From assembly GCA_937926205.1 (NCBI GenBank), contig CALEYL010000031.1, forward strand, positions 34,121 to 98,120: a DNA stretch of 64,000 nt, in the 5' to 3' direction. The notes under the pieces are model-generated. The model did not search any database and was not told where the DNA came from. It saw only the letters and a program-made list of their open reading frames with translations. The translations under genes and the position numbers were made by a program. Shown here piece after piece: positions 4,481 to 64,000 of the stretch. Position 1 is the first letter of the stretch, and the number at the start of each line of letters is the position of its first letter. This DNA is from an uncultured Saprospiraceae bacterium (GTDB lineage: Bacteria; Bacteroidota; Bacteroidia; Chitinophagales; Saprospiraceae).

Positions 4481-4495
4481 TTTTTGAAATTGATA

Positions 4496-6538: not shown

Positions 6539-6601
6539 TTTAAGTTTGTTAAAAGAATGAAAAATGATGCCCGATTTACTTCATAGGTCACAAAAACCGA
6601 G

Positions 6602-7837: not shown

Positions 7838-7865
7838 GGTATTATCTTTTTCAAAATGATTCAAT

Positions 7866-10800
7866 TCAATTTTCATTTTCCTGTCCGTTTTGCGCTGTTT
7901 CAACAGCTCTATTAGCGCGGGCCAGCTGTCTTTTTACCACACCTTCCCGCCAATAGGCCTGCAACACCGGTACCACAAACATGGTCATCAACTGGATGGT
8001 CATGCCTCCAAAAGTCGGAATGGCCATGGGAACCATGATGTCGGCGCCTTTCCCTGTAGAAGTCAGCACGGGCAGCAAGGCGATGATGGCGACAGCGGCG
8101 GTCATCATGGCTGGCCGAACCCTTTTTTTCCCGGCTTCCAAAACGGCGGCACGAACCTCCGGTACGGTGGCAGGCTGCCTTTCTTCAAATACCTGGTGGA
8201 TGTAAGTTCCCATAATCACCCCGTCGTCGGTAGCAATGCCGAAGAGGGCGATAAAGCCCACCCAGACTGCCACACTGAGGTTGATGGGGTGTAATTGAAA
8301 CAGCTCCCGCATGCTCACGTCGGCAATGGAAAAATCCAGAAACCAGTCTTGCCCGTACAACCACAGCATGATGAAGCCGCCGGCGAATGCCACGAACACT
8401 CCGGAAAAGTGGATAGAAGATGCCACAACCGTTTTGAATTGAAAAAACAGCAGCAAAAAGATGGTAATGAGGCTGATGGGAATGACGATGGACAGCCGTT
8501 TCATAGCCCGCAGCTGGTTTTCATAAGTACCTGAAAATTTGAAACTTACACCAGCAGGGATGACCAGACTGCCATTGTCAATCCGCTCCTGGATGAAGCG
8601 CTGTGCTTCTTCCACCACATCCACTTCCGGATAGCCGTCTTTTTTGTCGAGCAGGACATAGCCGGTGAGGAAAGTGTCTTCACTTTTGATCATTTGCGGA
8701 CCGCGAACGTATTCGATTTTAACCAGTTCACCCAACGGCACCTGTGCCCCGACCGGCGTGGGTACGAGCATTTTTTTGATGCTTTCAGGGCTGTCGCGCA
8801 GTTCCCGGGGATAGCGCACGCGCACAGGGAAGCGTTCCCGACCTTCGACCGTAGTCGTTACATTCATGCCGCCAACAGCCGTTTCAATAAAATTCTGAAT
8901 GTCTTCAATGTTGAGGCCATAACGGGCTGCGGCGCCCCGGTCGATATTCAGATGGAGGTAGGGTTTCCCAACAATCCGATCGGCAAAAACGGCTTCGGCT
9001 TTCACAGACGGCACTTCTTTTAAGATGGCTTCGAGTTGCATGCCGAATGTTTCGATGGTTTGAAGATTGGGACCATAGACTTTGATGCCCATAGGGGCGC
9101 GCATACCAGTTTGCAACATGACCAGGCGGGTTTCAATGGGTTGCAGCCTGGGCGCAGAGGTAACCCCGGGAATTTTGGTCACCCGAATAATTTCGTCCCA
9201 GATATCGTCGGGATTCTTGATTTTGGGACGCCAATTCCGGAAATACTGCCCGTCGGGGTCGGGGATCAGATCAGAGGATTTTACTTTTCGCAACAGCGCT
9301 TCCTCATTGCTGAGCGTATCCCCCGAAACAAGAATAAAGCGATCTTTTTTATCCGTTTTAAAAGTTTCCCTTTTTCCATTTTCGTTGATTAAAAATTCAG
9401 GCTTGTAATTGATGAGGTTTTCAAACATGGAAATGGGGGCTGGATCAAGGGCAGTCTCTGCACGGCCTGCTTTTCCAACAGCCAAATCCACTTCGGGGAT
9501 GTTGGCCAGCAACATGTCGAGCTGGGCCACGATCCGCTGGTTTTCTTCCACCCCGGAGTGTGGCATGGAGGTCGGCATCAACAGAAAACTGCCTTCATTA
9601 AGCGATGGCATGAATTCTTTTCCCATGCCCGGGAATTTGTGCAGCATAAAGCTCCAGACTCCGTTCTCCCGCACATTCCAGCCAACCTGATCGAATCCCC
9701 TGGCGACGAAGCCCAGACTCCTGTTCCAACCCAACCAGATGAGCAAGCCAAAAAGTATGGTAAACAAAGGCAGGAGCATAAATTTGCCTTTATTCGCCAG
9801 ACACCATTTTAATACCGGTTCATAAAAATGAACAATGGACATCAGCCCCCCGAGGATGATGCCGAGCAGCACCACCACGAATAAGTAATTGGTCAGGATA
9901 GAATTGTAGTGGCCGAGTGGAACCCATTCTTCCGCCAGAATAAAGGTAGCAACCAGCAGGATAATGGCAATGTTGATGAAGTTCGGCCAGGTACGTCTTT
10001 TCTCCGGCCACCTGTATTCCAACAGGTTGTTGATGCCTATTGCCACCAGCCAAACGGGCAACCAGGTTTTATAAACCAGCGCAAACAGGATGCCTGCGGC
10101 TATCAGGGCTATGTTCCAGACGTTTCGCACCCTTTTTTTATCAAAATTCAGGGACAAAACGAGGTGCGCCAATGCGGGCAATACGACGATGCCGAGTACA
10201 AATGAAGCGCCCAATGCAAAGGTTTTGGTAAAAGCAAGTGGCTTAAACAGCTTTCCTTCAGCGGATTGCATGGCAAAAACGGGCAGAAAACTGACCACTG
10301 TTGTCGCGAGCGCTGTTGTAATGGCGGAAGATACTTCTACCGTCGCCTCGTAGATGACTTCGAGCAGACGTTTTCCCCTCACACCTTCGTTTTCAGGCAT
10401 TTCGAGGTGCCGTATGATGTTTTCCACAAAAACAATACCCACGTCAACCATCACACCGATGGCAATGGCAATACCGGAAAGCGCCACGATATTGGCATCC
10501 ACACCGGCATAACGCATCACAATAAAGGCCATCAGCACCGCGACGGGCAGCATGCTGGATATGAGCAGGGAGGCCCGCAGGTTGAGCACCAGCAAAATGA
10601 CCACGATGATGCTGATGATGATTTCGTGAGAAAGCGCCCGTTCCAGCGTTCCCAGGGTTTCCTGGATGAGTTGGGTGCGGTCGTAAAAAGGCACAAGGGT
10701 AAGTTGACTTACGACGCCATTTGACAGCTTCTTTTTGGGCAGCCCGGGCGCCATTTCTTTGATTTTTTCTTTGACGCCATTGATGACGTGCAGGGGGTTG

Positions 10801-11729
10801 GAACCATAGCGGGCGATGACAACTCCGCCGGCTACTTCCGCGCCGTCTTTGTCGAGTAAGCCCCTCCGGGTAGCAGGCCCAAGGGAAACAACCCCAATGT
10901 CTTTGATGCGGATGGGTACGTTGTCGTTTACGGCCACCACGGCCAGTTCCAGGTCTTCCACTTTTTTGATGTACCCAAGGCCCCGAACGAAGTATTCTGC
11001 TTTATTTATTTCTATGGTTTGGGCTCCGGCGTCGCGGTTCGATTTTTTTACAGCCGTCATTACATCCATGAGGGGAATGCCATAGGATTTCAAAGCATCG
11101 GGATTGACATCCACCTGGTATTCCTTCACCTGGCCACCAACGGAAGCAACTTCCGAGACGCCCTCAACGGCATTGAGTGCATATTTTACATAAAAATCCT
11201 GGACAGTTCTTATTTCATTCAGATCCCAGCCTCCGGTAGGGTTGCCGGCAGAATCGCGGCCCTCAATGGTGTACCAGTACACCTGACCCAATGCGGTGGC
11301 GTCAGGGCCCAGAGAAGGCTGTACGCCCGGGGGCAACAAACCGGATGGCAACGAATTCAGCTTTTCTAAAATTCGGCTTCGCGACCAATAGAATTCTGTT
11401 TGTTCATCAAAAATGACGTAAATGATGCCAAAGCCAAACATGGAGGTGCTCCGGATCGATTTCACGCCGGGGATACCCAGCAAAAATGTTGTGAGCGGAT
11501 AGGTAATTTGATCTTCCACATCCTGCGGAGAGCGACCCATCCAGTCGGCGAAGACAATTTGCTGGTTTTCGCCAAGATCGGGAATCGCATCCACCGGGAC
11601 CGGATCAGATGGCAGAAATGTATTCCAGCCAAAAGGCGCCGTGACCATGCCCCAGCCAATAAACAACAGCAAAAGCAGCAGGGTAACAAATTTGTTTTCC
11701 AGAAAAAACCGAATGATTCCGTTTAGCAT
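7866..11729 (-). CDS. CusA/CzcA-family heavy-metal efflux RND permease (1287 aa, oversized)
   Basis: Typical N-terminus MLNGIIRFFLENKFVTLLLLLLFIGWG. AcrB/CusA-like periplasmic and TM blocks (VVIARYGSNPL, IAIAIGVMVDVGIVFVENI, LFGIATDDGVIM). Extra hydrophobic segments sit between canonical TM6 and TM7. Confidence 0.9.
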   Translation of the reverse strand: MLNGIIRFFLENKFVTLLLLLLFIGWGMVTAPFGWNTFLPSDPVPVDAIPDLGENQQIVFADWMGRSPQDVEDQITYPLTTFLLGIPGVKSIRSTSMFGFGIIYVIFDEQTEFYWSRSRILEKLNSLPSGLLPPGVQPSLGPDATALGQVYWYTIEGRDSAGNPTGGWDLNEIRTVQDFYVKYALNAVEGVSEVASVGGQVKEYQVDVNPDALKSYGIPLMDVMTAVKKSNRDAGAQTIEINKAEYFVRGLGYIKKVEDLELAVVAVNDNVPIRIKDIGVVSLGPATRRGLLDKDGAEVAGGVVIARYGSNPLHVINGVKEKIKEMAPGLPKKKLSNGVVSQLTLVPFYDRTQLIQETLGTLERALSHEIIISIIVVILLVLNLRASLLISSMLPVAVLMAFIVMRYAGVDANIVALSGIAIAIGVMVDVGIVFVENIIRHLEMPENEGVRGKRLLEVIYEATVEVSSAITTALATTVVSFLPVFAMQSAEGKLFKPLAFTKTFALGASFVLGIVVLPALAHLVLSLNFDKKRVRNVWNIALIAAGILFALVYKTWLPVWLVAIGINNLLEYRWPEKRRTWPNFINIAIILLVATFILAEEWVPLGHYNSILTNYLFVVVLLGIILGGLMSIVHFYEPVLKWCLANKGKFMLLPLFTILFGLLIWLGWNRSLGFVARGFDQVGWNVRENGVWSFMLHKFPGMGKEFMPSLNEGSFLLMPTSMPHSGVEENQRIVAQLDMLLANIPEVDLAVGKAGRAETALDPAPISMFENLINYKPEFLINENGKRETFKTDKKDRFILVSGDTLSNEEALLRKVKSSDLIPDPDGQYFRNWRPKIKNPDDIWDEIIRVTKIPGVTSAPRLQPIETRLVMLQTGMRAPMGIKVYGPNLQTIETFGMQLEAILKEVPSVKAEAVFADRIVGKPYLHLNIDRGAAARYGLNIEDIQNFIETAVGGMNVTTTVEGRERFPVRVRYPRELRDSPESIKKMLVPTPVGAQVPLGELVKIEYVRGPQMIKSEDTFLTGYVLLDKKDGYPEVDVVEEAQRFIQERIDNGSLVIPAGVSFKFSGTYENQLRAMKRLSIVIPISLITIFLLLFFQFKTVVASSIHFSGVFVAFAGGFIMLWLYGQDWFLDFSIADVSMRELFQLHPINLSVAVWVGFIALFGIATDDGVIMGTYIHQVFEERQPATVPEVRAAVLEAGKKRVRPAMMTAAVAIIALLPVLTSTGKGADIMVPMAIPTFGGMTIQLMTMFVVPVLQAYWREGVVKRQLARANRAVETAQNGQENEN

Positions 11730-34221: not shown

Positions 34222-34791
34222 TCAACTTTTCCACTTAATATTACACCCCGCGCTCGGATACTGCACTTCGCTAACAGGCAGTCCTTCCAACACCGCATCG
34301 ATTGCCGCACGCAGGTCTGCGCCGGTTAATGGATGGGTATTTTTAGGCCGTGAATCGTCGATTCTGCCCCGGTAAACCAGGCGCATCTGGCTGTCAAAAA
34401 CATAGAAGTCGGGCGTGCAGGCGGCATCGTAAGCCCGGGCAACTTCCTGAGATTCGTCGTACAAATACGGAAATGTATAACCAACCGCTCTGGCGTGAGG
34501 GCCCATTTTTTCAGGCGCATCATCCGGATAATTTTCCACATCGTTTGAACTGATGCCGATAAAACTGACGCCTTTTGCCTGATAATCGCGGGCCAGCCGC
34601 ACGATTTCGGGATTTACGTGGATCACATAAGGGCAGTGGTTGCAAAGAAACATCACGACGGTCGCCTTGTCAGAACGCAAATCAGACAAGCGCATCACCT
34701 TTCCCGAAACGGTATCGGGCAATTCAAATTCAGGCGCTGTTGTGCCCAGCGGAAGCATGTTGGATTCGGTATAAGCCATATTATCGTTCAA
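34222..34791 (-). CDS. thioredoxin-fold protein (redoxin/AhpC-TSA-like)
   Basis: VVMFLCNHCPYV with a CxxC-type site (CNHC) in a thioredoxin-like context. 189 aa. Confidence 0.8.
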   Translation of the reverse strand: MNDNMAYTESNMLPLGTTAPEFELPDTVSGKVMRLSDLRSDKATVVMFLCNHCPYVIHVNPEIVRLARDYQAKGVSFIGISSNDVENYPDDAPEKMGPHARAVGYTFPYLYDESQEVARAYDAACTPDFYVFDSQMRLVYRGRIDDSRPKNTHPLTGADLRAAIDAVLEGLPVSEVQYPSAGCNIKWKS

Positions 34792-34883
34792 TTGTCACAA
34801 AGCAAACAAAGCAAGTTGCATTCGGGTTGCCCGAGGCTACGCTATTTTATCAGGATTGTCGTTTTATGCGTGACGACATTTTT

Positions 34884-37800
34884 ATGATGAGAAAAACTAC
34901 CCTGTTTTTGATTGGTATGCTTGGCCTGGCGGCAATGTGCACTGCGCAGTCGCCCGGTCTGTCCAACTTAAGAAGCAGGATAGTCCTTCCGATAGCCGGC
35001 GAAGGCTTTGCTGACACGCTTAGCTTGGTTCCGGAGTCCGTCGTGGTAACTGGTATCAGGAGCGGTATGCGGTTAGATACAAGCCATTACCAGATCATCA
35101 ACCGGCGATTGCTGTGGCTTAAAAGCAGTAATGATTCCGTGTTGGTGCGTTACCGCGTCCTGCCTTTCGACCTCGGGCAAACCGTGTTGCGCCTGGATAC
35201 AGCGCGTCTGGCTGCAGACAATGCTCCGGATGAACCTCCGGGGCTTCGATACAACCCCTACGAACGCAGCGAAAGCAGTGGTTTGTTTGACGCAAAAGGC
35301 ATCGATTACAACGGAAGTTTTTCAAGGGGCATTTCATTTGGCAACAGCCAGGACCTGGTGCTCAACTCCAACTTCAACCTTCAATTATCGGGCAATATTG
35401 GCGATGGCGTGGAAATTCTCGCTGCCATCAGCGACGAAAACATCCCCCTGCAGCCAGAGGGCAATACCCGCCAACTGCGAGAATTTGACCGCATTTTCAT
35501 CCAATTAAAAAAAGGCAACAACCGCCTGATTGCCGGAGATTATGAATTGCGGCGCCCCAACAGCTATTTCATGAATTATTTCAAAAAATTGCAGGGGGCT
35601 ACCTTCAGTACGGCTTTCAAAACCGGAGAGACAGGAGAAGTACAAACCACAGCCAGCGTCGCCATTTCCCGGGGACAATTTGCGCGCAATACCATCGCGC
35701 AACAGGAAGGCAACCAGGGGCCGTATAAACTTAACGGCAATTCGGGAGAGCGCTTCCTCATTGTCCTGTCAGGAACAGAAAAAGTATGGATAGACGGCAA
35801 ACTGCTCACGCGCGGCCTCGAAGGCGATTACATCATTGACTACAACCGCGGCGAACTGACATTTACCAACAGGCAGCTCATTACCAAAGACAGCCGCATC
35901 ATTGTGGAGTTTGAGTACTCCGATCAGGGTTACCTCCGTTCTCTGACGGCTTTTAACGCCGATTACCAACAGGATCGCTGGCGCCTGCACCTCAACTGGT
36001 TTGCGCAGCAGGACAGTCGGACGTCAACCGGCGACCAAAACCTGAGTGATGCTGAAAAACAGGCATTACAGGAAGCCGGCGACAATCTGGCGCTTGCTTC
36101 CGGCATCGATACGCTGGAAGAATTTTCTGCTTTCCGGGCCAGCTATCAACGCCTCGACACGGTGTTGAACTGTGGCAACCGCGACACCCTGATCCAATAT
36201 TTAAAACTTTCTTCTGACGCCGAAACGGCGCGTTACACCGCACGTTTTTCTCTGGTTGGAGAAGGAAACGGCGACTATGTACTCGACGAGTCTCAAGGCG
36301 CCAATGAGCGCGCATACCGCTGGGTGGCGCCTGATCCGGTAACGTGCCGGCGTCGGGGAAACTATGCCCCGGTAGTGCAACTGGCTGCGCCCAAACAGCA
36401 ACAATTGATAAGCGCCGGAGTGGATTATCGCTTTGCCAAAAACGGCATGGTAAAAACAGAAGTGGCGCTGAGCCGCAACGACCTCAACCGTTTTTCGAAG
36501 CTCGACAGTGAAGACGACACGGGCCTGGCTGCGTTCGTAAACGTTCAAAAAGACATTCGGATTGGTCCCGACAGCAACGGCTGGAAACTGGAAACAGCCA
36601 CAAGCTATGAATTTGTGCAGCGCAATTTCAAAGCCCTGAACCCCTATCGCGACCCTGAGTTTTTACGCGACTGGAGCCTGGCCAACCAACAGGGAATAGG
36701 TGTTGCACCAGCTGCCGATGAACACCTTGCGCGCACAGCAATGGCCTTGCGCTTCAAAAACCGGGGAAGTTTGCAGTATGGATTCGGCGCTTTTTTGCGC
36801 GATTCTTTGTACACCGGACTTCGACACAACGCTGCTTTCATCTGGCAACAAAATGGTTGGGATTTGAATGCTGAAGCCAGTCTGCTCGCCAGCGATGAAA
36901 GCACCCAACGCACCCGTTTTTTTCGCCCGCGCGTCAACTTTTCCAAAACGATTCCCAAACTAAAAAACTGGCGGTTGGGCTTGAGTGGTGAACGTGAAAA
37001 AAGCGATCGCAGAGCCATCAACAGCGATAGTCTGCTTGTCACCAGTTTTTTTTACGACAACTTTCGTTTGTTTGCGGAAAGCGCCGCTTCAGAAAAAAGC
37101 AACCTGAGTTTATCTGCAGGCAGGCGCTGGGATTATGCCCCTTTCGGTGAAGATTACCGATCCCTTAGCGTTGCAACGGAATACCGTGCAGCAGGCGCCT
37201 GGCAGGCCGCAAAATCCGTGCAATGGAGTGGCAGTCTGGGGTATCGAAAGCTGGAAGTTTCGGCTTCTGCACCAACTACTTTAATGCCCGCTTCTACTTT
37301 CCTGGGACGCATGGATTTTAACGGCAATTTTTTCAAAGGCGCCGTTCGCACCGTAACGGTTTACGAACTCAGTGCCGGTCAGGAACCTAAATTAGAATTT
37401 ACTTACGTTCCCGTAACGCCGGGCTCCGGCACACACATCTGGTTAGACTCGCTCTACAACAATGACGGAAAAATACAGTCTTACGAAATGGAGCCGGCGC
37501 CGTTTCAGGATCAGGCCGACTACATTCGGGTCAGCACCATCAGCGATACTTACGTGCGCACCGACAATGCCAATCTGAATTACAGCGTTCAGATCGAGCC
37601 CCGTGCCGTCTGGTTTGCCGCTAAAGATTACCGGAAAGCACTTAGCAAGTTTTCGATTTTGTCTTCTTTGCAAATCAACCGAAAAACCCGGGAAGCGCCC
37701 GGTGTTGAAGCCTGGAATCCATTTCAGTTGTCGATTCCCGACACGGCGCTCGTATCCGTAAACCTCAATGCGCGCAATACAGTGTTTTTCAATCGCGCCG

Positions 37801-38405
37801 ATCCAAGGTTTGACCTTCAGCTGGGGCAAACAAATCTTCGAAGCAGAATTGTACAGGTTTCGGGTTTTGAAAGCAGGCAGACGCTCGAAAACTTCCTGCG
37901 CGGCCGCTGGAACCCTGATCAGCACTGGAGCCTACAACTCGGCGTAACGCAAGGCAGGCGCGAAAGCGATTCTGAATTTTTCGATACGCGGGACTATACA
38001 ATTCTGTCGTGGAAGGGCGAACCTCAAATTACCTACCTGCCCAATAAAACGTTTCGGACCATCCTGCGCTACCGGCTCCAGCGCGACCGGAATACCCTGA
38101 ACGACGCCGGTGAAACGGCTTTGCACAACGACTTCAGCCTTGAAGCGGCCTACAACCAGTCAGCAAAATCTTCCTTTCGCTTAAGGGCTTCCTACATTTC
38201 GATAGCGTTTGACGGGCAAGTCAATTCTCCCGTTGGTTTTGCGCTCCTGAACGGCTTGCAAAAAGGTCAGAATTACCTGTGGAATCTGGGATTGGATCGC
38301 CAGCTGGGCAAAAACCTGCGCCTTTCTATGAGTTATGAGGGGCGGAAAACCGGAAAATCAGAAGTAGTCCATGTTGGCCGGATGCAGGTAACGGCAGTTT
38401 TTTAG
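34884..38405 (+). CDS. large predicted outer-membrane beta-barrel protein, family not recognised
   Basis: Start moved to [22 protein letters not shown] (signal peptide). The listed ORF start 34575 runs antisense through the thioredoxin-like gene. Beta-strand-rich with alternating hydrophobicity, ending ...GRMQVTAVF (aromatic C-terminal residue typical of OMPs). Confidence 0.75.
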   Translation: [1173 protein letters not shown]

Positions 38406-51221: not shown

Positions 51222-51740
51222 TTATGCCCGGAATCGATTCTCAGGCAATGATTTCAGGTGCTCTGCTCCATCCACATCGATATCGAGATCGTTCAGGTCG
51301 CTAAAGCGCAATTTGCATTCCAGATGCAACATCAGGAATTCATCTGTTTCACGGACTAAGATCAATATGTTGTTAATAATGCCGTCCTTTTCCCGGATGA
51401 GCAGGTTCACATGTTCATTGTTTCCCCTCATCATGATGAGGTCTTCATAAGATTCTGCTTTCACCCCTTTTATCAAACGGTCGAAATCTTCCTGCAAAGG
51501 TTGTTCTCCGTTCTCGAGTTGCAACAATTCCAACCGGCTGATTTTCCGCAACAATTTTGACGCATCTTCTGCATCTGTAACTTTGGATGCCAAACGGATA
51601 AACAAACCCTGAATGCGCACGCCGGTAGCATTAGGAGAAGTATTATAATGTCTGTAAAAATCCCGGATCGGGTCTTTCTGAGCCTGTGTAAGGGTGCTGC
51701 AAAGCAAAGTCAGTATGGCGATGAAAATAGTTTTTTTCAT
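51222..51740 (-). CDS. DUF4252-like secreted protein
   Basis: Signal peptide MKKTIFIAILTLLCSTLTQAQ. About 170 aa. Position downstream of the ECF sigma/anti-sigma pair is typical for DUF4252. The family call is from memory. Confidence 0.6.
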   Translation of the reverse strand: MKKTIFIAILTLLCSTLTQAQKDPIRDFYRHYNTSPNATGVRIQGLFIRLASKVTDAEDASKLLRKISRLELLQLENGEQPLQEDFDRLIKGVKAESYEDLIMMRGNNEHVNLLIREKDGIINNILILVRETDEFLMLHLECKLRFSDLNDLDIDVDGAEHLKSLPENRFRA

Positions 51741-51772
51741 GTTGTTTTGTTTATTGGTTTAAGGAATCCAAA

Positions 51773-52300
51773 TCAATCCTCCTGTTTCTTATCCCCTTTG
51801 TTTTTTTCAACGGACCGGGCCATTTTCGTCACCTTATTCAGGTTGATTTTGCCCAGAAAGCTAATCAGGACAAACTCGTCATCGTAAGAAAGCAGCAGCA
51901 ATTCATCTATGGTTTCCCCATTGCTTCCTTTAGCCAGAAACTCGAGGTTGGTGCCATCTTTTTCTTTTACCGTCATCAGGACTTCATATTCTGATGTGTT
52001 GATTTTTGACTTGAATTCCTTGTAGAATTTGTCGGGTGTCGTTTCTGTCGTGAGGATTCTCAATGATTTGATGTCCTTGGCGATGTCTTTCATGACCTCG
52101 CCTTCTTCTTCTCCATCGAAGACCATGTTATTGACTTCAATATTCCCAAGCATTTCAAACATTTTCGGGCTGATGTAAACCACCGAAAAACGGCTGTCTT
52201 CGACATACTGGGAAAAGTACTTGTCAATGGCATTGTCCTGCGCAGAAAGCATGGTGGACAAGCCGGTTGTAAAAAGCAGAACAGTCAGGAATTTTTGCAT
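51773..52300 (-). CDS. DUF4252-like secreted protein (paralogue)
   Basis: Start moved to MQKFLTVLLFTTGLSTMLSAQ (175 aa). The 73 upstream codons of the listed ORF (TTG start) are translated repeat DNA (KSSNFQIF...). Confidence 0.6.
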   Translation of the reverse strand: MQKFLTVLLFTTGLSTMLSAQDNAIDKYFSQYVEDSRFSVVYISPKMFEMLGNIEVNNMVFDGEEEGEVMKDIAKDIKSLRILTTETTPDKFYKEFKSKINTSEYEVLMTVKEKDGTNLEFLAKGSNGETIDELLLLSYDDEFVLISFLGKINLNKVTKMARSVEKNKGDKKQED

Positions 52301-52677
52301 AACGATTAAAATTTGATGATTTGAAAATTTTAAAATTTGGTGATTGGGATTCGGGATGCCCGGAAAGTTGTGTTCATCAAAGTACTTTTCTGGCATTATT
52401 GATTTGATGATTTGAAAATTTGATGATTTGAAAATTTGAAAATTTGATGATTTGAAAATTTGATGATTTGATGATTTGGTGATTGGGATTCGGGATGCCC
52501 GGAAATTCGTATTTATCAAAATGCTTTTACGGCATTGGAAACTTGAAAATTTGAGAATTGGGATTCGATATGCCCCCTGTTTCCGGAATGCCTCATTTTC
52601 AAATCATCAAATCAACTCATCTTCAAATTAATCCCCTCATTTTCAAATTTTCTAATAAACACATCTTCAAATTAACA
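52301..52677. repeat. gene-less repeat locus: two good copies and one degenerate copy of the 65-nt element, each preceded by 8-nt-periodic arrays, then an oppositely oriented array
   Basis: Copies at about 52335-52397 and 52475-52537 (tttggtgattgggattcgggatgcccggaaa...ggcatt). Degenerate copy at about 52541-52595. Arrays are gatgattt/gaaaattt. Inverted words attttcaaatcatcaaatc and catcttcaaatta lie at 52596-52677. Confidence 0.8.
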
Positions 52678-53139
52678 TCAATCCCCCTTCTCCAAAATCC
52701 GCACGCCCCGATTCAACCCCTCTGACACTTTCATCAAAGCATTTCGGGTAATTTGCAGGGCTTCTTCTTTCGTTTTGGGCTCGTATTTTGACCAGTCAAT
52801 GGTTGCCACCGGAGCTTCCGGAGCAGGGCTTATTTCCCGATACACCAAAGTACCAGCGATCAGGGCCAACGCAAAAATGGCTGCAGCGGCCGCAACCCGA
52901 ATGGGATTCAGGCGGAAACGACGCGCCTGTGGCACAGATAATTCAGCATCAAGGCGCCGCTCAAAACCAGCAGGCAGGGAACGCGACTTTTCAGCATCCA
53001 GAAAGCGAAACAAAGGGATGTATTTTTCCAGTTCTTTTTCCACTACTTCCTGCGAGTTGAAGTAAGCTTTCAGACGTTTTTCTTCTTCCAGCGTCGTTGT
53101 TCCGGCAAAGTATTTTTCGATCAGCGTTTTATAATCCAT
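52678..53139 (-). CDS. putative single-pass anti-sigma factor
   Basis: Start at MDYKTLIEKYF, overlapping the sigma gene stop by 11 nt. One TM (IRVAAAAAIFALALIAGTLVY). The call rests on position immediately after the ECF sigma gene. No zf-HC2 motif seen. Confidence 0.5.
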   Translation of the reverse strand: MDYKTLIEKYFAGTTTLEEEKRLKAYFNSQEVVEKELEKYIPLFRFLDAEKSRSLPAGFERRLDAELSVPQARRFRLNPIRVAAAAAIFALALIAGTLVYREISPAPEAPVATIDWSKYEPKTKEEALQITRNALMKVSEGLNRGVRILEKGD

Positions 53140-53644
53140 GATTTTCTGTTTGGAGATACAAGCTCCGGACGGCATTGCGCGCCCGGAACAAATTCACTTT
53201 CACCTGATTCATCGGCAGATCCAGTAATTCAACAATTTCCTGATAACTCATTTCTTCTATGTCGCGCAGGTGCATGACCAGGCGCTGTTTTTCCGGTAGT
53301 TGCTGCATCAGCTTCAGCAGATGTGCCATGGTATCTGAATATTCGGCAGCTGCTAAAGGAGTAGGCTCGTGATCTGCCAGCCCGGGCAGGGATTCTGCTT
53401 CCAGATACCCCCTTCGTTGCTTCCCGCTGCGGATTTTATCAATGGCCTGATTTTTTACCAGCTTCATACACCAGGCCTCCACATTCCGGATGGCCGGCCA
53501 GGCATCCTGCTGACGCCATGCTTTTACCAGTACCTCCTGCACGACATCCTGCGCTTCTGCGTCATCGCTCAGGATGCGCAGGGCAAGTCGGTAGAGTTTG
53601 TCTTTAACCGGCAGGATATGTTGCTTGAAGTAGGTTAAGCTCAT
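53129..53644 (-). CDS. ECF-type RNA polymerase sigma-70 family factor
   Basis: Region 2 DAEAQDVVQEVLVKAW. Region 4 LPEKQRLVMHLRDIEEMSYQEIVELLDLPMNQVKVNLFRAR. Confidence 0.9.
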   Translation of the reverse strand: MSLTYFKQHILPVKDKLYRLALRILSDDAEAQDVVQEVLVKAWRQQDAWPAIRNVEAWCMKLVKNQAIDKIRSGKQRRGYLEAESLPGLADHEPTPLAAAEYSDTMAHLLKLMQQLPEKQRLVMHLRDIEEMSYQEIVELLDLPMNQVKVNLFRARNAVRSLYLQTENHGL

Positions 53645-58919: not shown

Positions 58920-58953
58920 GCAGGAGGCATCCCGAATTTGGGATGCCTCCTGC
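58920..58953. repeat. perfect 14-bp stem-loop built from the dispersed-repeat core
   Basis: gcaggaggcatccc-gaattt-gggatgcctcctgc contains GGCATCCCGAAT. It is preceded by an A-run, so it looks like a terminator only for minus-strand transcription. Confidence 0.65.
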
Positions 58954-59034
58954 GAATCAAGCGTAAAATCTGTTTGTGTACGCTATGAATTTCGCACCCA
59001 CTCACTTTTTTGGAGTGGAAAGACATGCGGATTT

Positions 59035-59161
59035 CTTTTGAATGTCGAACACTGAATATCGAACAAGGAACCGCAGAAGTGAAGCAGTCTTGCTCCACTT
59101 CGACATTCGATATTCGACATTCAATATGCTGCTGTTCTAAACTCTTTTGAATGTCGAACAC
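59035..59161. repeat. composite direct/inverted repeat built from GAATGTC/GAACACT-type heptamers
   Basis: 18-nt direct repeat cttttgaatgtcgaacac at about 59035 and about 59144. gaatgtcgaacactgaatatcgaa (59040-59063) is roughly the reverse complement of ttcgacattcgatattcgacattc (59099-59122). Confidence 0.7.
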
Positions 59162-59330
59162 CAGGCGGGCTCTCCGGCTGCCTGTTCTCGGTCGCCCGAT
59201 CTTCCTTTTCAGCTGCTCTTTTTTCCCGTTCAACTAAATTTGTATACCCTGTCGGCATGGTAAATTCTTACTTTAGCGAAGAGCAACCTATTGGTAAAAA
59301 TCACCTTACATCCTATTTAATTATCCGACG

Positions 59331-62300
59331 ATGACGATACCCTTACGCACCCTAAACCTTACTTTATTCTTCCTGGCCGCAACTTTTTCCGGCGTACACG
59401 CCCAAACCTGCCAGGCGGGCTTTAGTTATGTCCTCAACGGTTTGAGTGTTCAATTTACCCAGGAGTCTACCGCTTCGTCAACCATTACAGGGTTCCTTTG
59501 GGATTTTGGCGACGGCGCCAGCTCCACTCTGGCCAATCCGGAGCATACCTATACCGATTCAGAAGACCTGATGGTCTGCCTGACGATCACAACGGCAGAT
59601 GGCTGTACCGACCAGTTTTGTGCAGAAGTGGAACCCTGCCAGCTTAATTTGACAGTCTCAGTAGGCGATTGTAATACAAACGGTGAAATACCACTCGGAA
59701 TTAATATTACAGATGTATTCGGCAACGCGCGGGAGATCAATATTTCCATAGACGGCGTATTGCTGCCGGGAAGCCCGTTTCTCATCGACAACGACCTGCC
59801 TGTTTTTACCAATGCACTGATCAACGGCGACGGCCTGGTACATACCATTTCTGTGGTTTCTACCCACAATGCAGCCTGCACGGCAAGCTATACTTTCACA
59901 GCGCCGGACTGTGCCTCCAGTTGCTTCCTTTCCGGATTAAATGTGGCGATTGCTCAGGGCGCCATAAAAACAGTGAATGTTGGCAGTAACTTTTTCAACC
60001 CTGTAAATACCACCATCGAAGTCGGTGAACTGGTGCGTTTCAATTGGACAACTGGTGGTCATACCTCAACTTCTGATGCCACATCAGGTCCCGACAGCTG
60101 GAATTCAGGGCTATTGGGCGCCGGAGCAACCTACGATGTGCGCATCAAAAATCCGGGCATTCATCCATATTATTGTATTCCACACGGTGGTCCCGGCGGT
60201 GTGGGCATGTCGGGTATGATTGTTGCAAACTGCCCGAACGGGAATAATTTCACCCTGCAAATTACTTTCAATACCACACAGGCCGGAGCTCAAGGCTACA
60301 ATTTCCGGATTGATGGCGTCCTGCAGCCGGGGAGTCCGTTTGCTTATAATGGAACGGGGTTGCAATCGCTAAGCGCAACAATGGCCGGCGACGGACAGGA
60401 TCATACTTTTGAGATTGCCGATGCAGGTGATCCGGGCTGTTCCCAAATTCGCACCTTTACTGCACCTGATTGCGGTGCGGCGCCAACGTGCAGCATGAGC
60501 GTCAGTGCCCAGCAAAATGGCGGCTGCAATGTTGCCAATCAAATAGAGGTCAGTGTACAGATCAACAGTGTCAATGGTGGAGCAGCCGGGTTTGAGGTTC
60601 TTTTTGACGGCGTGGCAAGCGGCGGACCTTATGTGTACTCGGCCACGGGTGTCACCACCGTTTCCATTTTCGTTCCCGGCGATGGCCAATCCCATACCAT
60701 CAGCGCCAGAGACCTGAATACACCAACCTGCGAAGGCAGCACGCTTTTTGTTGCGCCTGATTGCTCCACTCCCTGCAATCTGGGTAACATCACAGCAGCA
60801 ACCGGCGGAGGGATTACCCATATAGTAGAAGTGCAGGATTTTCAGTTTGTCCCCCAAAACCTCACCATAGCTGCCGGGGATCGGGTAGAATGGCACTGGA
60901 CAGGCTCTGTCGCACATACCAGTACCTCTGACGCTGCAACTGGCGCAGACAGCTGGAACAGCGATTTGCTGCACCACGGCGCCACGTATCTATCACCCGT
61001 ACTCTCTGCCGGCATCCATCCCTACTATTGCATCCCGCATGGCGCGCCTGGCGGTATAGGCATGACCGGTGTCATTACCGTTCAGGCCAACTGCGCCAAT
61101 GGACAGGTTCCTATTGCGCTGAGCTTTACGGAATCAGGCGGTGGATTTGGCGGTTTTCAGGTATGGGTTGACAGTGTGGCGGCAGGCACTTTTGCTTACG
61201 CTGCTTCCGGGTTTGATACCATAAACGTTCTTGTACCCGGCGATGGGATGCCACATACCCTGCTGGTTCAGGATGCAGAAAATCCAGATTGCAGCGCCTC
61301 GGTAGCCATCACTACGCCGGATTGCAATGCTTCCACCTGCCGTTTGACTTTGCAGGCTCAGGAAAATGGCCCTTGCGATACGCTTTTGCAGCTGCCGGTA
61401 GAAGTATTGATTACCGATTTAGGAGGCGGAGAAGGTGGTTTCATCCTTTTTGCCGATAGTGTTCTGGTGGATACTTTTTTATACGGGGCCAACGATTCTA
61501 CCCTCGTATCGCTATTGCTTCCGGGTGACGGACTCCCTCACATTTTCTTCGCGGCAGACCTGTCCGATTCAATGTGTATTGCTTCCGATACCCTGACTAC
61601 CCCCAATTGCATGCTCCCATGTCAACTGTCCAACCTCCTGCTGGCAAGTGGCGGGGGCGGCGATCCGGTTATACATACGGTAGAAGTTGTGGATTTTTCA
61701 TTTATCCCCAATCACATCAATGTTCAGGTAGGAGACATCGTCCGCTTTATCTGGAATGGCCATGTACAGCATACAACTACTTCAGATGCCATTACCGGGC
61801 CCGACGTCTGGAACAGTGGTTTGCTGGGCCATGGGAGTGTTTTTGATGTCACCATAACCAGCGAAGGGGTGCACCCATATTATTGTATCCCGCACGGCGC
61901 GCCAGGGGGCATCGGCATGGCAGGAGACATAACAGCTACGCCGCCCTGCCAGGATGGAATGGTCAGCGTTGCCGTTTCATTCGACGCTACGATGGGCAGC
62001 AGCCAGGGCTACGAGGTTTTTGTGGATGGAGTGCAAACTGGTGGCCCATTTGCTTACAATGATCCGAATGGCAGCAACCAGACCACTGTGATGGTTGCGG
62101 GTGACGGACTGACACATAACATCAGCCTTCAGGATGTGGATGGTGCGGAATGCGGGATCAGCGCTGACATACAAACCCCTAATTGCGCGGGCGGTTGTAA
62201 TATCGCCAATCTGGACATTCAATTTCCGGATACAACCTGTAACAACGGGATGATCCCGGCGAGCTTGTCCTTTACAGCAGCGGGAAGCGGCGATCAGGGA

Positions 62301-64000
62301 TACCATGTGTTTATTGACGGCATTCTGGAAGCCGGAAGTCCGCACGACTATACGCCCGGCGGCTTCAATACCCTGGACTTCCAGATCAACGGAGACGGAG
62401 GAATGCATGCACTCCGTATAGAAGACGTCGGTAACACAACCTGCATTGCCGATACTATTTTTCATGCGCCGCAATGCCCTGATGCCTGCCAAATCCGCTT
62501 ATCAACAGAAATGGTAGGGACTTGTAACGGGGAGGGACTGGTCAGTTACCAGATCATGGTGATGGCTTCCAATGTGGGAAGCAATGGTTTTAACTTTTTT
62601 GTGGACAATTTACCTTTGGCTGGAAACCCCTTCCCATACGGGGCTGGCGGCATCAGCCTGGTTGACATTGTCCTTCCCGGCGATGGACAAATCCACCTGA
62701 TAGCTGTTGCAGACGCCAGTCAGGGTTCGTGCAGCGCTTCGGCGAGTATTCAAAGTCTGAACTGTGGCATTGGTTGTAATTTGGTTGTAAATGCAGTCCA
62801 GTCCGGCGCCTGCAATACTGTGGACCAGGTGCCTTTTAATGTAATGGTTCAGGCCACGACGCCGGGTAATGAAGGATTTGAACTGTTAATCGATGGCGTA
62901 CCTGATCCGGGCAGTCCTTTTGTTTATCAGGCTAATGGCCTGACAACGGTTGCGGTGCTTTTGCCGGGAGATGGTTTGGCGCACAGCCTACAAGTCATCG
63001 ATGTCGCTTTTGCGAATTGCCGGGACTCTGTCATTGTCCATACGCCGCTCTGTGGCGCCAATTGCGCCATGGGCAATTTTTCGATAGCGTACAATGTGCC
63101 CCAAACCTTTACGGTTGAGGTGCGCGACTTTAATTTTTTTCCAAATGATTTAACCGTGAGCGTGGGCGATACCGTTCGCTTTTTGTGGACCGGCCAGATC
63201 CCGCATACTACCACGTCGGATGTACTGGGTGGGCCGGACTCCTGGAACAGCGGCCTTCTGGGTCAGGGCTCGGTGTATGATTTGGTGATCGAATCGACAG
63301 GAAACCACCCCTATTACTGCATTCCCCATGGTAGTCCGGGAGGCATTGGGATGTCAGGGATCATTCGGGTACAAAATCCCTGCGATGATGGCCGATTGAG
63401 CGTCCGCGTTACTTTTAGCGCCATCAACGGCAGTTTCGAGGGTTATTCCGTTTACCTCGACGACGATGAATTCATTACCAGTGGTTTGTATCAACCTTCC
63501 GGAACAAATCAGGTGGTTTTTACTGTTCCGGGGGACGGCGCTTTGCACCATGTTCTGATTCAGGATGCAACCGATCCCGACTGCCAGTTGCACGAACATT
63601 TTGACATGCCCGATTGTGGCGATCCATGCTTTGGGTTTGAAGCGCAGTTTGCCTATCAAATCAATTATCAAACCCTCGAGGTTCAGTTTACAGATGCCTC
63701 AGCCGGAATGCCACAAACCTGGATGTGGGCATTTGGCGACGGGCAGACTTCAACAGAAGCAAATCCCGTTCATACTTTTGAACCTGGGGCCTACCCCGTC
63801 TGCCTCGCTATAGAAAACGATGATCTTGGTTGTGTGAATGTTTTTTGCGACACCCTCTATCTAAATCTGGTCGTATGCGAACCCTCTTTTGTTTTGGAAC
63901 ACGATGGATTGACGGTGTTTTTCAAAGACCATTCACAAACAAGTCAACCCATCAACAATTGGATCTGGACTTTAGGTAATGGCCAGCAGATCGTCGGAGA
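59331..64000 (+). CDS. giant secreted multi-domain protein: signal peptide, PKD, 4 cupredoxin (type-1 Cu) domains, 10 Cys-framed modules, PKD, PKD... (3' end beyond window)
   Basis: Not in ORF track because there is no stop in the window. I hand-translated the frame from ATG 59331 to 64000 and found no stop. N-terminus is MTIPLRTLNLTLFFLAATFSGVHAQ. PKD signatures are WDFGDGASSTLANPEHTY and WAFGDGQTSTEANPVHTF. The listed antisense and off-frame ORFs here are shadows. Confidence 0.85.
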   Translation, partial: MTIPLRTLNLTLFFLAATFSGVHAQTCQAGFSYVLNGLSVQFTQESTASSTITGFLWDFGDGASSTLANPEHTYTDSEDLMVCLTITTADGCTDQFCAEVEPCQLNLTVSVGDCNTNGEIPLGINITDVFGNAREINISIDGVLLPGSPFLIDNDLPVFTNALINGDGLVHTISVVSTHNAACTASYTFTAPDCASSCFLSGLNVAIAQGAIKTVNVGSNFFNPVNTTIEVGELVRFNWTTGGHTSTSDATSGPDSWNSGLLGAGATYDVRIKNPGIHPYYCIPHGGPGGVGMSGMIVANCPNGNNFTLQITFNTTQAGAQGYNFRIDGVLQPGSPFAYNGTGLQSLSATMAGDGQDHTFEIADAGDPGCSQIRTFTAPDCGAAPTCSMSVSAQQNGGCNVANQIEVSVQINSVNGGAAGFEVLFDGVASGGPYVYSATGVTTVSIFVPGDGQSHTISARDLNTPTCEGSTLFVAPDCSTPCNLGNITAATGGGITHIVEVQDFQFVPQNLTIAAGDRVEWHWTGSVAHTSTSDAATGADSWNSDLLHHGATYLSPVLSAGIHPYYCIPHGAPGGIGMTGVITVQANCANGQVPIALSFTESGGGFGGFQVWVDSVAAGTFAYAASGFDTINVLVPGDGMPHTLLVQDAENPDCSASVAITTPDCNASTCRLTLQAQENGPCDTLLQLPVEVLITDLGGGEGGFILFADSVLVDTFLYGANDSTLVSLLLPGDGLPHIFFAADLSDSMCIASDTLTTPNCMLPCQLSNLLLASGGGGDPVIHTVEVVDFSFIPNHINVQVGDIVRFIWNGHVQHTTTSDAITGPDVWNSGLLGHGSVFDVTITSEGVHPYYCIPHGAPGGIGMAGDITATPPCQDGMVSVAVSFDATMGSSQGYEVFVDGVQTGGPFAYNDPNGSNQTTVMVAGDGLTHNISLQDVDGAECGISADIQTPNCAGGCNIANLDIQFPDTTCNNGMIPASLSFTAAGSGDQGYHVFIDGILEAGSPHDYTPGGFNTLDFQINGDGGMHALRIEDVGNTTCIADTIFHAPQCPDACQIRLSTEMVGTCNGEGLVSYQIMVMASNVGSNGFNFFVDNLPLAGNPFPYGAGGISLVDIVLPGDGQIHLIAVADASQGSCSASASIQSLNCGIGCNLVVNAVQSGACNTVDQVPFNVMVQATTPGNEGFELLIDGVPDPGSPFVYQANGLTTVAVLLPGDGLAHSLQVIDVAFANCRDSVIVHTPLCGANCAMGNFSIAYNVPQTFTVEVRDFNFFPNDLTVSVGDTVRFLWTGQIPHTTTSDVLGGPDSWNSGLLGQGSVYDLVIESTGNHPYYCIPHGSPGGIGMSGIIRVQNPCDDGRLSVRVTFSAINGSFEGYSVYLDDDEFITSGLYQPSGTNQVVFTVPGDGALHHVLIQDATDPDCQLHEHFDMPDCGDPCFGFEAQFAYQINYQTLEVQFTDASAGMPQTWMWAFGDGQTSTEANPVHTFEPGAYPVCLAIENDDLGCVNVFCDTLYLNLVVCEPSFVLEHDGLTVFFKDHSQTSQPINNWIWTLGNGQQIVG
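59961..60230 (+). other. cupredoxin domain 1 (type-1 Cu ligand pattern H...C-x2-H-x7-M)
   Basis: IKTVNVGSNFFNPVNTTIEVGELVRFNWTTGGHTSTSDATSGPDSWNSGLLGAGATYDVRIKNPGIHPYYCIPHGGPGGVGMSGMIVA. Confidence 0.75.
60812..61087 (+). other. cupredoxin domain 2
   Basis: ITHIVEVQDFQFVPQNLTIAAGDRVEWHWTGSVAHTSTSDAATGADSWNSDLLHHGATYLSPVLSAGIHPYYCIPHGAPGGIGMTGVITVQ. Confidence 0.75.
61668..61937 (+). other. cupredoxin domain 3
   Basis: VIHTVEVVDFSFIPNHINVQVGDIVRFIWNGHVQHTTTSDAITGPDVWNSGLLGHGSVFDVTITSEGVHPYYCIPHGAPGGIGMAGDITA. Confidence 0.75.
63102..63377 (+). other. cupredoxin domain 4
   Basis: QTFTVEVRDFNFFPNDLTVSVGDTVRFLWTGQIPHTTTSDVLGGPDSWNSGLLGQGSVYDLVIESTGNHPYYCIPHGSPGGIGMSGIIRVQ. Confidence 0.75.

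Follow-up and report, generated by a model that had tools for sequence, protein, structure and literature searches.

The question raised by this locus is what a single, very large secreted protein might do with four blue-copper domains. The window, that is the whole stretch of 64,000 nucleotides analysed here from an uncultured Saprospiraceae bacterium (contig CALEYL010000031.1), ends on its forward strand in a long reading frame at 59331–64000, referred to below as the multi-Cu gene. The gene is real and encodes a secreted protein with four complete cupredoxin domains on an immunoglobulin-like (Ig-like) stalk. The protein probably places copper redox centres on the cell surface; we infer the surface location, the electron-transfer role and the partners alike. 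The parts are familiar (cupredoxin, PKD, Ig-like stalk and the tag of a type IX secretion system, T9SS), but their combination is widespread and undescribed in the literature found, and it carries a fixed, unusual His–Met loop.

The gene and its full-length product

The frame comprises 1,556 codons without a stop. The first-pass annotation had described an uninterrupted frame of more than 1,550 codons running off the window, and this run-off is the sole reason why the frame is missing from the list of open reading frames. A protein search recovered the complete product, P0001 (1,771 amino acids, on a 151,649-bp contig in NCBI/ENA), which is 100 % identical across the whole query; P0001 possibly comes from the same assembly as the window and is therefore not an independent confirmation. 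The part in the window is the first 88 % of P0001, which ends at about position 64646 in window numbering.

Concerning the N-terminal region, a signal-peptide-like sequence is read directly from the translation (MTIPLRTLNLTLFFLAATFSGVHA, followed by QT). It occupies residues 1–24 (59331–59402) and consists of a basic n-region, the hydrophobic core LTLFFLAATF and VHA before the Q, with cleavage predicted after VHA. A PKD domain follows at residues ~26–102 (59406–59636), where the best PF00801 stretch is 33–88 and PKD domains of the PDB match residues 29–95 (E 1.2e-6). Both features stand where they had been placed before. The PKD assignment is based on PF18911 (87.6 bits) and PF00801 (32.3 bits), and more PKD domains are found in the C-terminal part: one at residues ~1433–1515 (63627–63875; best PF18911 stretch 1448–1503) and the start of the next (63876–64000), which is cut by the window end and is recognised from the P0001 sequence and from a PKD_4 match on the C-terminal 215 residues.

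The last 215 residues of P0001 lie outside the window and contain the remainder of the cut PKD domain, one further PKD domain and a T9SS type-A sorting domain. The sorting domain, which is seen only through the 100 %-identical P0001, scores 36.3 bits with TIGR04183 (Por_Secre_tail; cut-off 23) at residues 135–215 of the 215, and 25.5 bits with PF18962, just under the cut-off of 27. By this C-terminal sorting domain and the N-terminal Sec signal peptide, the latter read from the sequence, the protein belongs to the type-A cargo of T9SS. The guess that it is a T9SS substrate is thus borne out, and the missing C-terminus, in which such a domain was to be sought, has been recovered through P0001. 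Por_Secre_tail proteins are also encoded in related loci, and GldN is encoded in one of them (L095).

Based on the Cys positions and an internal alignment, the layout of the chain is resolved as signal peptide, PKD, M1, Cu1, M2–M3, Cu2, M4–M5, Cu3, M6–M9, Cu4, M10, four PKD domains and the T9SS sorting domain, where Cu denotes a cupredoxin domain and M an Ig-like spacer module. The mature protein is strongly acidic (isoelectric point about 4.1; 170 Asp and Glu vs 33 Lys and Arg) and contains 60 Cys.

The copper domains

The Pfam family PF00127 (Copper-bind) matches the protein in four stretches (98.9 bits, E 2.4e-28, cut-off 21.2). Cu1 covers residues 199–300 (59925–60230), Cu2 residues 483–587 (60777–61091; best PF00127 stretch 500–585), Cu3 residues 765–872 (61623–61946; PF00127 and PF13473, stretch 782–853) and Cu4 residues 1245–1350 (63063–63380), in which the PDB plastocyanin 2bz7 matches residues 1263–1337. 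The motif HT[ST]TSD is found four times (at residues 244, 529, 814 and 1292), as is HPYYCIPHG (at 278, 563, 848 and 1326), and the loop C-x2-H-x7-M is present in all four domains. The putative ligands are H244, C282, H285 and M293 in Cu1, H529, C567, H570 and M578 in Cu2, H814, C852, H855 and M863 in Cu3, and H1292, C1330, H1333 and M1341 in Cu4. All motifs quoted for four cupredoxin segments in the first-pass annotation are present four times, and the segment positions given there (59961, 60812, 61668 and 63102) are those of the V-x-V strand of each domain; the cupredoxin and PKD models proposed with them (PF00127, PF13473, PF00801 and PF18911) gave matches as well.

The protein belongs to the cupredoxins by the family hidden Markov model (HMM), and also by the predicted Greek-key beta-sandwich fold and the putative type-1 ligand set. 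A profile of 51 Cu domains of the family matches plastocyanin 2plt (E 1.9e-11); its four putative ligands, beginning with the His of HT.TSD, are aligned with His37, Cys84, His87 and Met92 of plastocyanin, and three residues are inserted between the last two ligands. The structure prediction of one Cu domain, also proposed earlier, was made for Cu2 with AlphaFold2 and gives a confident cupredoxin fold (predicted local distance difference test, pLDDT, 92.3). With this model Foldseek finds 434 PDB matches at E <= 0.001, the best of which are plastocyanins, amicyanin and the Nitrosopumilus maritimus cupredoxin 5fc9, with target-normalised template modelling (TM) scores of 0.68–0.81.

In modelled fold (TM up to 0.81) and in the identity and order of the four ligands, the domains agree with plastocyanin, amicyanin, pseudoazurin and halocyanin, and in the C-x2-H spacing with the first three of these. 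The His–Met spacing is 4 in plastocyanin vs 7 in the family; that of amicyanin is 2. The loop is indeed longer than that of plastocyanin, as had been noted, but it is not special to the repeated architecture, since single-domain cupredoxins share the x7 spacing. All of these are small carriers, whether soluble in the periplasm, lumenal or anchored to a membrane, whereas the protein studied here has four copies per chain (2–12 in the family), Ig-like spacers and T9SS export.

By their scores, the Cu domains are members of PF00127 that fall outside the named sub-families plastocyanin, halocyanin, amicyanin, pseudoazurin and CopI. The top NCBIfam models for the protein are plastocyanin and halocyanin. 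Single domains score 30.4–38.2 bits with plastocyanin proper (TIGR02656; cut-off 87.85), the loop of which is x4 and not x7, and the whole-protein score of 112.9 bits with this model is the mere sum of four domains. The single-domain scores are 32.7–39.9 bits with halocyanin (TIGR03102; cut-off 93.8), 18–20 bits with amicyanin (TIGR02657; 110.2) and 21–22 bits with pseudoazurin (TIGR02375; 109.85); with CopI (NF051440; 280) the whole protein scores 35.5 bits and a single domain 16.5 bits. No match to PF00394, PF07731, PF07732 or NirK was found in the Pfam and NCBIfam scans. Multicopper oxidases, NirK and ceruloplasmin also have several cupredoxin folds per chain, but there the domains pack and form inter-domain type-2/type-3 sites, whereas here they are separated by spacers and contain the type-1 ligand set only.

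The metal site is well conserved among the 499 Cu domains of 98 homologues: the exact C-x2-H-x7-M is present in 476 and all four ligands in 471 (94 %), while 12 domains lack the Met, with Gln in its place in some. The loop consensus H-G-x-P-G-G-[IV]-G-M is conserved across the family. The Cu domains inside P0001 are 50–58 % identical to one another and 65–76 % identical to domains from other species; the closest relatives of Cu1 are always first Cu domains elsewhere, and Cu2–Cu4 tend to match similar positions. This positional orthology and the synonymous divergence of the loop codons indicate that the duplications are old and that each site has been kept separately. Selection thus appears to have maintained the metal site in every Cu domain of P0001 over ancient duplications, and each domain is predicted to form a type-1 site occupied by copper.

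The Ig-like module

The stalk consists of ten copies of an Ig-like module of ~96 residues, which the first-pass annotation had not listed one by one: M1 at residues 103–198 (59637–59924), M2 at 301–386 (60231–60488), M3 at 387–482 (60489–60776), M4 at 588–669 (61092–61337), M5 at 670–764 (61338–61622), M6 at 873–955 (61947–62195), M7 at 956–1052 (62196–62486), M8 at 1053–1148 (62487–62774), M9 at 1149–1244 (62775–63062) and M10 at 1351–1432 (63381–63626). They were delimited by an internal alignment of the ten modules and an HMM census, and M9 was also modelled. Four Cys are the only residues that do not vary among 48 diverse copies; the motifs G-D-G-x-x-H...D (70–80 %) and G-S-P-F-like are conserved at 50–90 %.

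No Pfam family matches M in the Pfam scan (M1 included), and no PDB sequence matches it better than E 0.17. The AlphaFold2 model of M9, based on a 48-sequence alignment, is all-beta (pLDDT 93.9), and Foldseek gives generic Ig-type matches only (E >= 0.011, TM about 0.5), with none of a cofactor type. On these grounds M was not assigned to any known domain; its ‘GSPF’ motif shows a weak filamin-like resemblance. By an exhaustive profile search at E <= 0.001, the module was located in 1,043 representative proteins, which contain up to 35 copies each and are up to 6,949 residues long. Among 117 newly found M proteins (P0121–P0237), 93 contain no Cu domain, and several of the Cu-free proteins are T9SS proteins with M10-family peptidase and TIG heads. 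Since the module also builds copper-free T9SS proteins, it is read as a spacer, or a general stalk module of T9SS cargo; a primary role as a redox or metal part was rejected for the same reason and because only four Cys are invariant. M seems to be a repeat family of T9SS cargo stalks that is so far undescribed.

Distribution of the family

The strictly interleaved Cu/M pattern is shared by ~96 proteins of the first search, on about 96 of which PF00127 is precomputed, and by 24 further representatives, with 2–12 Cu domains each; the family thus has at least about 120 database clusters, which is a lower bound. The largest member, P0121, has 3,670 residues, 12 Cu domains and 22 M modules. Between successive Cu domains there are two to four M modules in P0001 and one to four across the family. 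The named sources are Saprospiraceae, Lewinellaceae, Phaeodactylibacter, Chitinophagales and ‘Bacteroidetes’, and the source names are limited to ‘PKD domain-containing protein’ or ‘plastocyanin/azurin family copper-binding protein’. The earlier proposal that the copy number of the Cu domain be followed through homologues is thereby answered. The literature search found no description of a tandem-cupredoxin architecture, of T9SS-exported cupredoxins, of plastocyanin-like proteins of Saprospiraceae or of DUF5777; many subscription papers were outside its reach, and the absence is no proof. The first-pass annotation had not recognised the architecture as a described family, which agrees with that search, but the architecture is not unique to this protein.

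Small relatives also exist. A search with the Cu profile yielded 120 small proteins, 80 of which have the x7 spacing, and complete long-loop single-domain cupredoxins with signal peptides are found in Anaerolineae, Ca. Kaiserbacteria and Ignavibacteriota. The single-domain set includes P0288, P0295, P0297, P0268, P0291, P0319 and P0242. Three of them (P0291, P0319 and P0242) combine a single cupredoxin and a T9SS sorting domain in ~195 residues, P0268 is LPXTG-anchored, and IPTL-CTERM-type tags are also seen among the single-domain relatives. These proteins have the H-G-x-P-G-G-x-G-M loop and the HT.TSD first-His motif in common with the multi-Cu family, and some are surface-targeted; unlike it, they have one domain in 85–200 residues and no M stalk, and they also occur in other phyla. 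The protein of the window thus represents an uncharacterised clade of long-loop cupredoxins in a form that is multimerised and mounted on a stalk; some members of this clade carry surface-sorting tags. There is also a sub-family which keeps the layout of M modules and Cu folds but has lost the Cys, His and Met ligands (P0097, P0098, P0146–P0151, P0159, P0162, P0174 and others); its sources name it only as PKD repeat protein.

Gene neighbourhoods of the relatives

Ten protein-seeded loci, that is homologues with known contigs, were available for comparison. In seven of them (L005, L006, L008, L009, L011, L012 and L095) a cytochrome/YceI/DUF5777 set lies on the same strand downstream of the multi-Cu gene, except that in L009 the cytochrome gene is upstream of it. 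The members of this set are a dihaem lipoprotein of ~250 residues, whose haem motifs are CX4CH and CXXCH (Pfam PSCyt1), a monohaem CXXCH lipoprotein of ~120 residues, an OB-fold ‘tRNA_anti-like’ protein, YceI and DUF5777 (66–76 % protein identity across lineages). Frequent extras are another YceI and a pair formed by a Y_Y_Y histidine kinase and a LytTR regulator. The cluster is also seen in most of the loci L013–L092. It is a widespread, uncharacterised gene cluster of Bacteroidota, and its recurrence beside the multi-Cu gene hints at a redox route through the periplasm and the outer membrane.

The reverse test was a metagenome scan seeded with DUF5777, which gave 80 loci, 36 of them with at least 6 kb of upstream DNA. 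The scan adds three further linked lineages (L013, L040 and L058). The cluster was rejected as an obligatory partner, because most clusters occur without a multi-Cu gene and the clade of the window has no such cluster beside the gene. Membership in the porin–cytochrome conduits was rejected as well: the protein has no haem motifs, and the cytochrome and DUF5777 genes are adjacent only in relatives.

Genes of metal efflux form a second group of neighbours. A CzcB/CusB-like adaptor with an HMBD domain lies directly after the multi-Cu gene, between it and the cytochromes, in L005, L011 and L095, and a CusA/CzcA-like resistance-nodulation-division (RND) pump together with an HMBD adaptor follows the gene in L004; in all four loci the spacing is 12–58 nucleotides and the strand is the same. 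In L005 and L011 a cation diffusion facilitator (CDF) is encoded upstream of the gene. Within the DUF5777 loci the HMBD adaptor is present in 4/5 with Cu domains vs 1/31 without (Fisher p = 4e-4), but the adaptor-positive lineages are related (74–78 % nucleotide identity in DUF5777) and some of the loci are duplicates, so this statistic overstates their independence. Taken together, the neighbourhoods give some support to both a redox and a copper-handling role.

A proposed surface array of copper centres

The reading that we prefer, tentatively and at slightly less than an even chance, is that the protein displays its copper centres on the cell surface as an array of separate one-electron carriers and does not act as a rigid wire. 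The signal peptide would direct export to the periplasm. T9SS cargo folds there, so the protein would acquire its disulfide bonds (from the 60 Cys) and its copper in this compartment. The type-A sorting domain would then mediate T9SS passage across the outer membrane, followed by anchoring on the surface or release. The mature protein would be a rod-like string of beta-sandwich domains, flanked by PKD domains, in which the Cu domains are held apart by two to four Ig-like spacers. Type-1 copper sites are one-electron transfer centres, and each Cu domain, cycling between Cu(II) and Cu(I) independently of the others, would carry electrons outside the cell. The whole set would make up a ‘brush’ of redox heads, exchanging electrons by collision with extracellular partners, with other heads or with the redox proteins of the cell itself. 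In many relatives the two periplasmic c-type cytochrome lipoproteins, YceI and DUF5777 might provide a redox route that spans the envelope, and the efflux adaptor, pump or CDF may supply periplasmic copper for metallation, or may mark a role in copper homeostasis.

An extracellular electron-transfer wire was among the functions suggested by the first-pass annotation, beside a copper buffer and an oxidase partner. Electron tunnelling in proteins is limited to roughly 1.4 nm, and one Ig-like domain is about 4 nm long. Since two to four Ig-like modules stand between successive Cu domains, a rigid Cu-to-Cu tunnelling wire is unlikely, judging from domain size. The comparison with the MtrCAB/OmcS-type conduits is speculative and one of functional analogy only: there too, many redox centres would be placed in one secreted surface polypeptide, and relatives of the multi-Cu protein are linked to c-type cytochromes and to DUF5777, which may be an outer-membrane protein. 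The centres of the multi-Cu protein would, however, be copper and not haem, they would be separated by Ig-like modules beyond the packing needed for tunnelling, the organisms of the group are aerobic heterotrophs, and there is no sequence or fold relationship.

Several observations weigh against a surface redox array. No extracellular electron donor or acceptor was identified for the protein, and no published account of any family member was found. The downstream context of the window gene is taken from its syntenic, 68 %-identical relative L093, which shares the upstream genes of the window (STAS, acyltransferase and S9 peptidase) and has a convergent CotH/T9SS gene and purD downstream, with no cytochrome cluster; in L001 (51 % identical) the downstream genes are those of aromatic amino acids. 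Many family members thus show cytochrome linkage, but the window’s own clade does not. Cu domains are found in only 5 of the 36 DUF5777 loci with at least 6 kb upstream, and as the cluster usually occurs without the multi-Cu gene, the linkage may be one of lineage synteny, not function. The gene is also dispensable between close relatives, since it is absent from L016, which is 97 % identical to L011 in DUF5777: compared with L011 (7995–15466), all of the multi-Cu gene but a 122-nucleotide remnant of its 3' end is missing from L016 (6594–7026), and the HMBD adaptor there has lost its 5' half. The flanks of this deletion are 87.7 % identical upstream and 95.5 % downstream, and the difference suggests recombination. 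Finally, the efflux adaptors, the pump and the CDF near the gene fit copper handling at least as well as they fit redox exchange.

Alternative explanations

The main rival is copper buffering, sequestration or detoxification, which we regard as somewhat unlikely. On this explanation the 4–12 high-affinity sites per molecule would act as a surface or secreted copper sponge, or would handle Cu(I)/Cu(II) in the manner of CopI, together with the adjacent efflux components. The HMBD adaptors, RND pump and CDF transporters described above all speak for it, as do the co-occurrence of the adaptor with Cu domains, with the reservation on independence already given, and the joint loss of the multi-Cu gene and half of the adaptor in L016. 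One report (PMC13308877) implicates CopI, a cupredoxin-like protein, in copper tolerance, and relates its copper capture to His/Met-rich and N-terminal His-rich regions. The multi-Cu protein resembles CopI in its cupredoxin-type domain, to which the CopI HMM gives a weak match below the cut-off, and the Cus/Czc-type gene association of some lineages is analogous. CopI is a small periplasmic protein, however, and its capture regions are absent here, where no more than five His and Met are found in any 30 residues. Also against buffering, six other lineages and the window’s own clade have no adaptor beside the gene, the copper-export island of the window is about 48 kb away, and the efflux genes could instead provide periplasmic copper for metallation. 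A buried, stoichiometric type-1 site is, moreover, a poor high-capacity sink for copper.

A second explanation is that the protein gives electrons to, or takes them from, one particular redox enzyme that is secreted or lies on the surface (such as a multicopper oxidase, an enzyme of the lytic polysaccharide monooxygenase type, or one handling nitrite or NO), which would make the protein a tethered analogue of pseudoazurin or amicyanin. Amicyanin, pseudoazurin and plastocyanin are the closest folds and each serve defined partner enzymes; the T9SS route is common to many secreted enzymes, and the stalk module is common to T9SS peptidases. No oxidoreductase candidate recurs beside the gene in the ten protein-seeded loci, however, and there is no redox partner among the upstream genes of the window, with no oxidoreductase within 10 kb upstream. 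We consider this explanation unlikely.

Decidedly unlikely is an adhesin or structural surface fibre, in which the cupredoxins would be rigid beta-sandwich blocks or binding modules and copper would be structural or absent. PKD domains, Ig-like repeats and a T9SS tag are the standard build of Bacteroidota adhesins, and the protein shares with the adhesin-like T9SS repeat proteins the signal peptide, PKD, long beta-sandwich stalk and type-A sorting domain, as well as the M module, which forms Cu-free giants; the sub-family with degenerate Cu domains shows that the fold can persist without the site. What differs is the regular insertion of cupredoxin domains with a metal site into the stalk of the multi-Cu proteins, and the four ligands, the fixed loop length and the conserved loop residues have been kept across ancient duplications, which argues against a purely structural role.

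An artefact of assembly or annotation, that is a chimeric or frameshift-masked repeat gene, is extremely improbable: the gene is repeat-rich, comes from a metagenome-type assembly and may share that assembly with P0001, but the frame is free of stops, its DNA repeats are short and 74–80 % identical, the four Cu-loop segments are only 74–75 % identical with many synonymous differences and no long identical repeats, so that a collapsed assembly is unlikely, and about 96 homologues from independent samples have the same interleaving, including L093 with its upstream synteny. The concern about repeats raised in the earlier annotation is thus answered by the homologues and the divergent repeats, and not by P0001, which is not independent.

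Other features of the window

Upstream of the multi-Cu gene the window encodes an S9 prolyl oligopeptidase (on the same strand), an acyltransferase, a STAS protein, a set of extracytoplasmic function (ECF) sigma factor, anti-sigma factor and DUF4252 genes, and a penicillin amidase. A terminator-like hairpin (58920–58953) with 17-nucleotide arms, 94 % complementary and without a loop spacer, lies directly after the stop codon of the S9 peptidase. On the forward strand, 89 nucleotides 5' of the ATG, TAAATTTG (59235–59242) matches the Bacteroidota -7 promoter consensus TAnnTTTG, a motif that is not enriched in the window (42 found vs 49.5 expected). The hairpin and the TAAATTTG box weakly suggest that the multi-Cu gene is its own transcription unit.

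The same intergenic region contains a dense array (59034–59161) of six GAAT(G/A)TCGAA / TTCGA(C/T)ATTC motifs, including a 19-nucleotide exact direct repeat (59034 and 59143) and a 26-nucleotide inverted repeat. Nowhere else in the window is there such an array (3 matches vs 0.25 expected). A conserved operator was rejected for the GAATGTCGAA motif array, as it is absent upstream of all relatives checked; an operator array is one possible reading of it, and a small structured RNA and a mobile remnant are others.

The copper-export island (2696–11729, reverse strand) is complete: it comprises a CusA/CzcA-family RND pump (7866–11729; TIGR00914, 784.6 bits, above the cut-off), an outer-membrane factor (6602–7903), a Cu-translocating P-type ATPase (4496–6538; TIGR01511, 603.5 bits) and, at 2696–4480, a CusB-like adaptor that contains HMBD and DUF3347 domains. 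A co-oriented block on the reverse strand (51222–53644) encodes an ECF sigma factor (GFO_1088 family, 185.5 bits), a putative anti-sigma factor and two DUF4252 proteins (GFO_1090/1091-like). A 1,276-residue reading frame on the forward strand (34575–38405) has no Pfam family at E <= 1e-5.

Implications

A broader and more speculative proposal, which we consider unlikely, is that in aerobic Bacteroidota associated with surfaces the family does with copper what multihaem proteins do in extracellular electron transfer. Chains displayed through T9SS, each with 2–12 mobile, tethered heads, would link extracellular substrates (such as Fe(II), Mn(II), reduced organics, or the surface of a host or alga) to an envelope module of DUF5777, YceI and two cytochromes, and a metal exporter would load the copper.

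Three elements associated with the family, namely the x7 variant of the His–Met loop, which may tune the site, the M stalk module and the cytochrome/YceI/DUF5777 cluster, have no Pfam model, and no paper on them was found. Blue-copper proteins are the textbook small carriers of the periplasm, the thylakoid lumen or the membrane; if the surface array is real, the family would extend blue-copper chemistry to the bacterial surface, and its spaced redox centres would give bioelectronics a natural scaffold. Such a protein would also mean an unrecognised capacity for extracellular redox exchange or copper handling in Bacteroidota of the sea and the soil (Saprospiraceae, Lewinellaceae and Chitinophagales).

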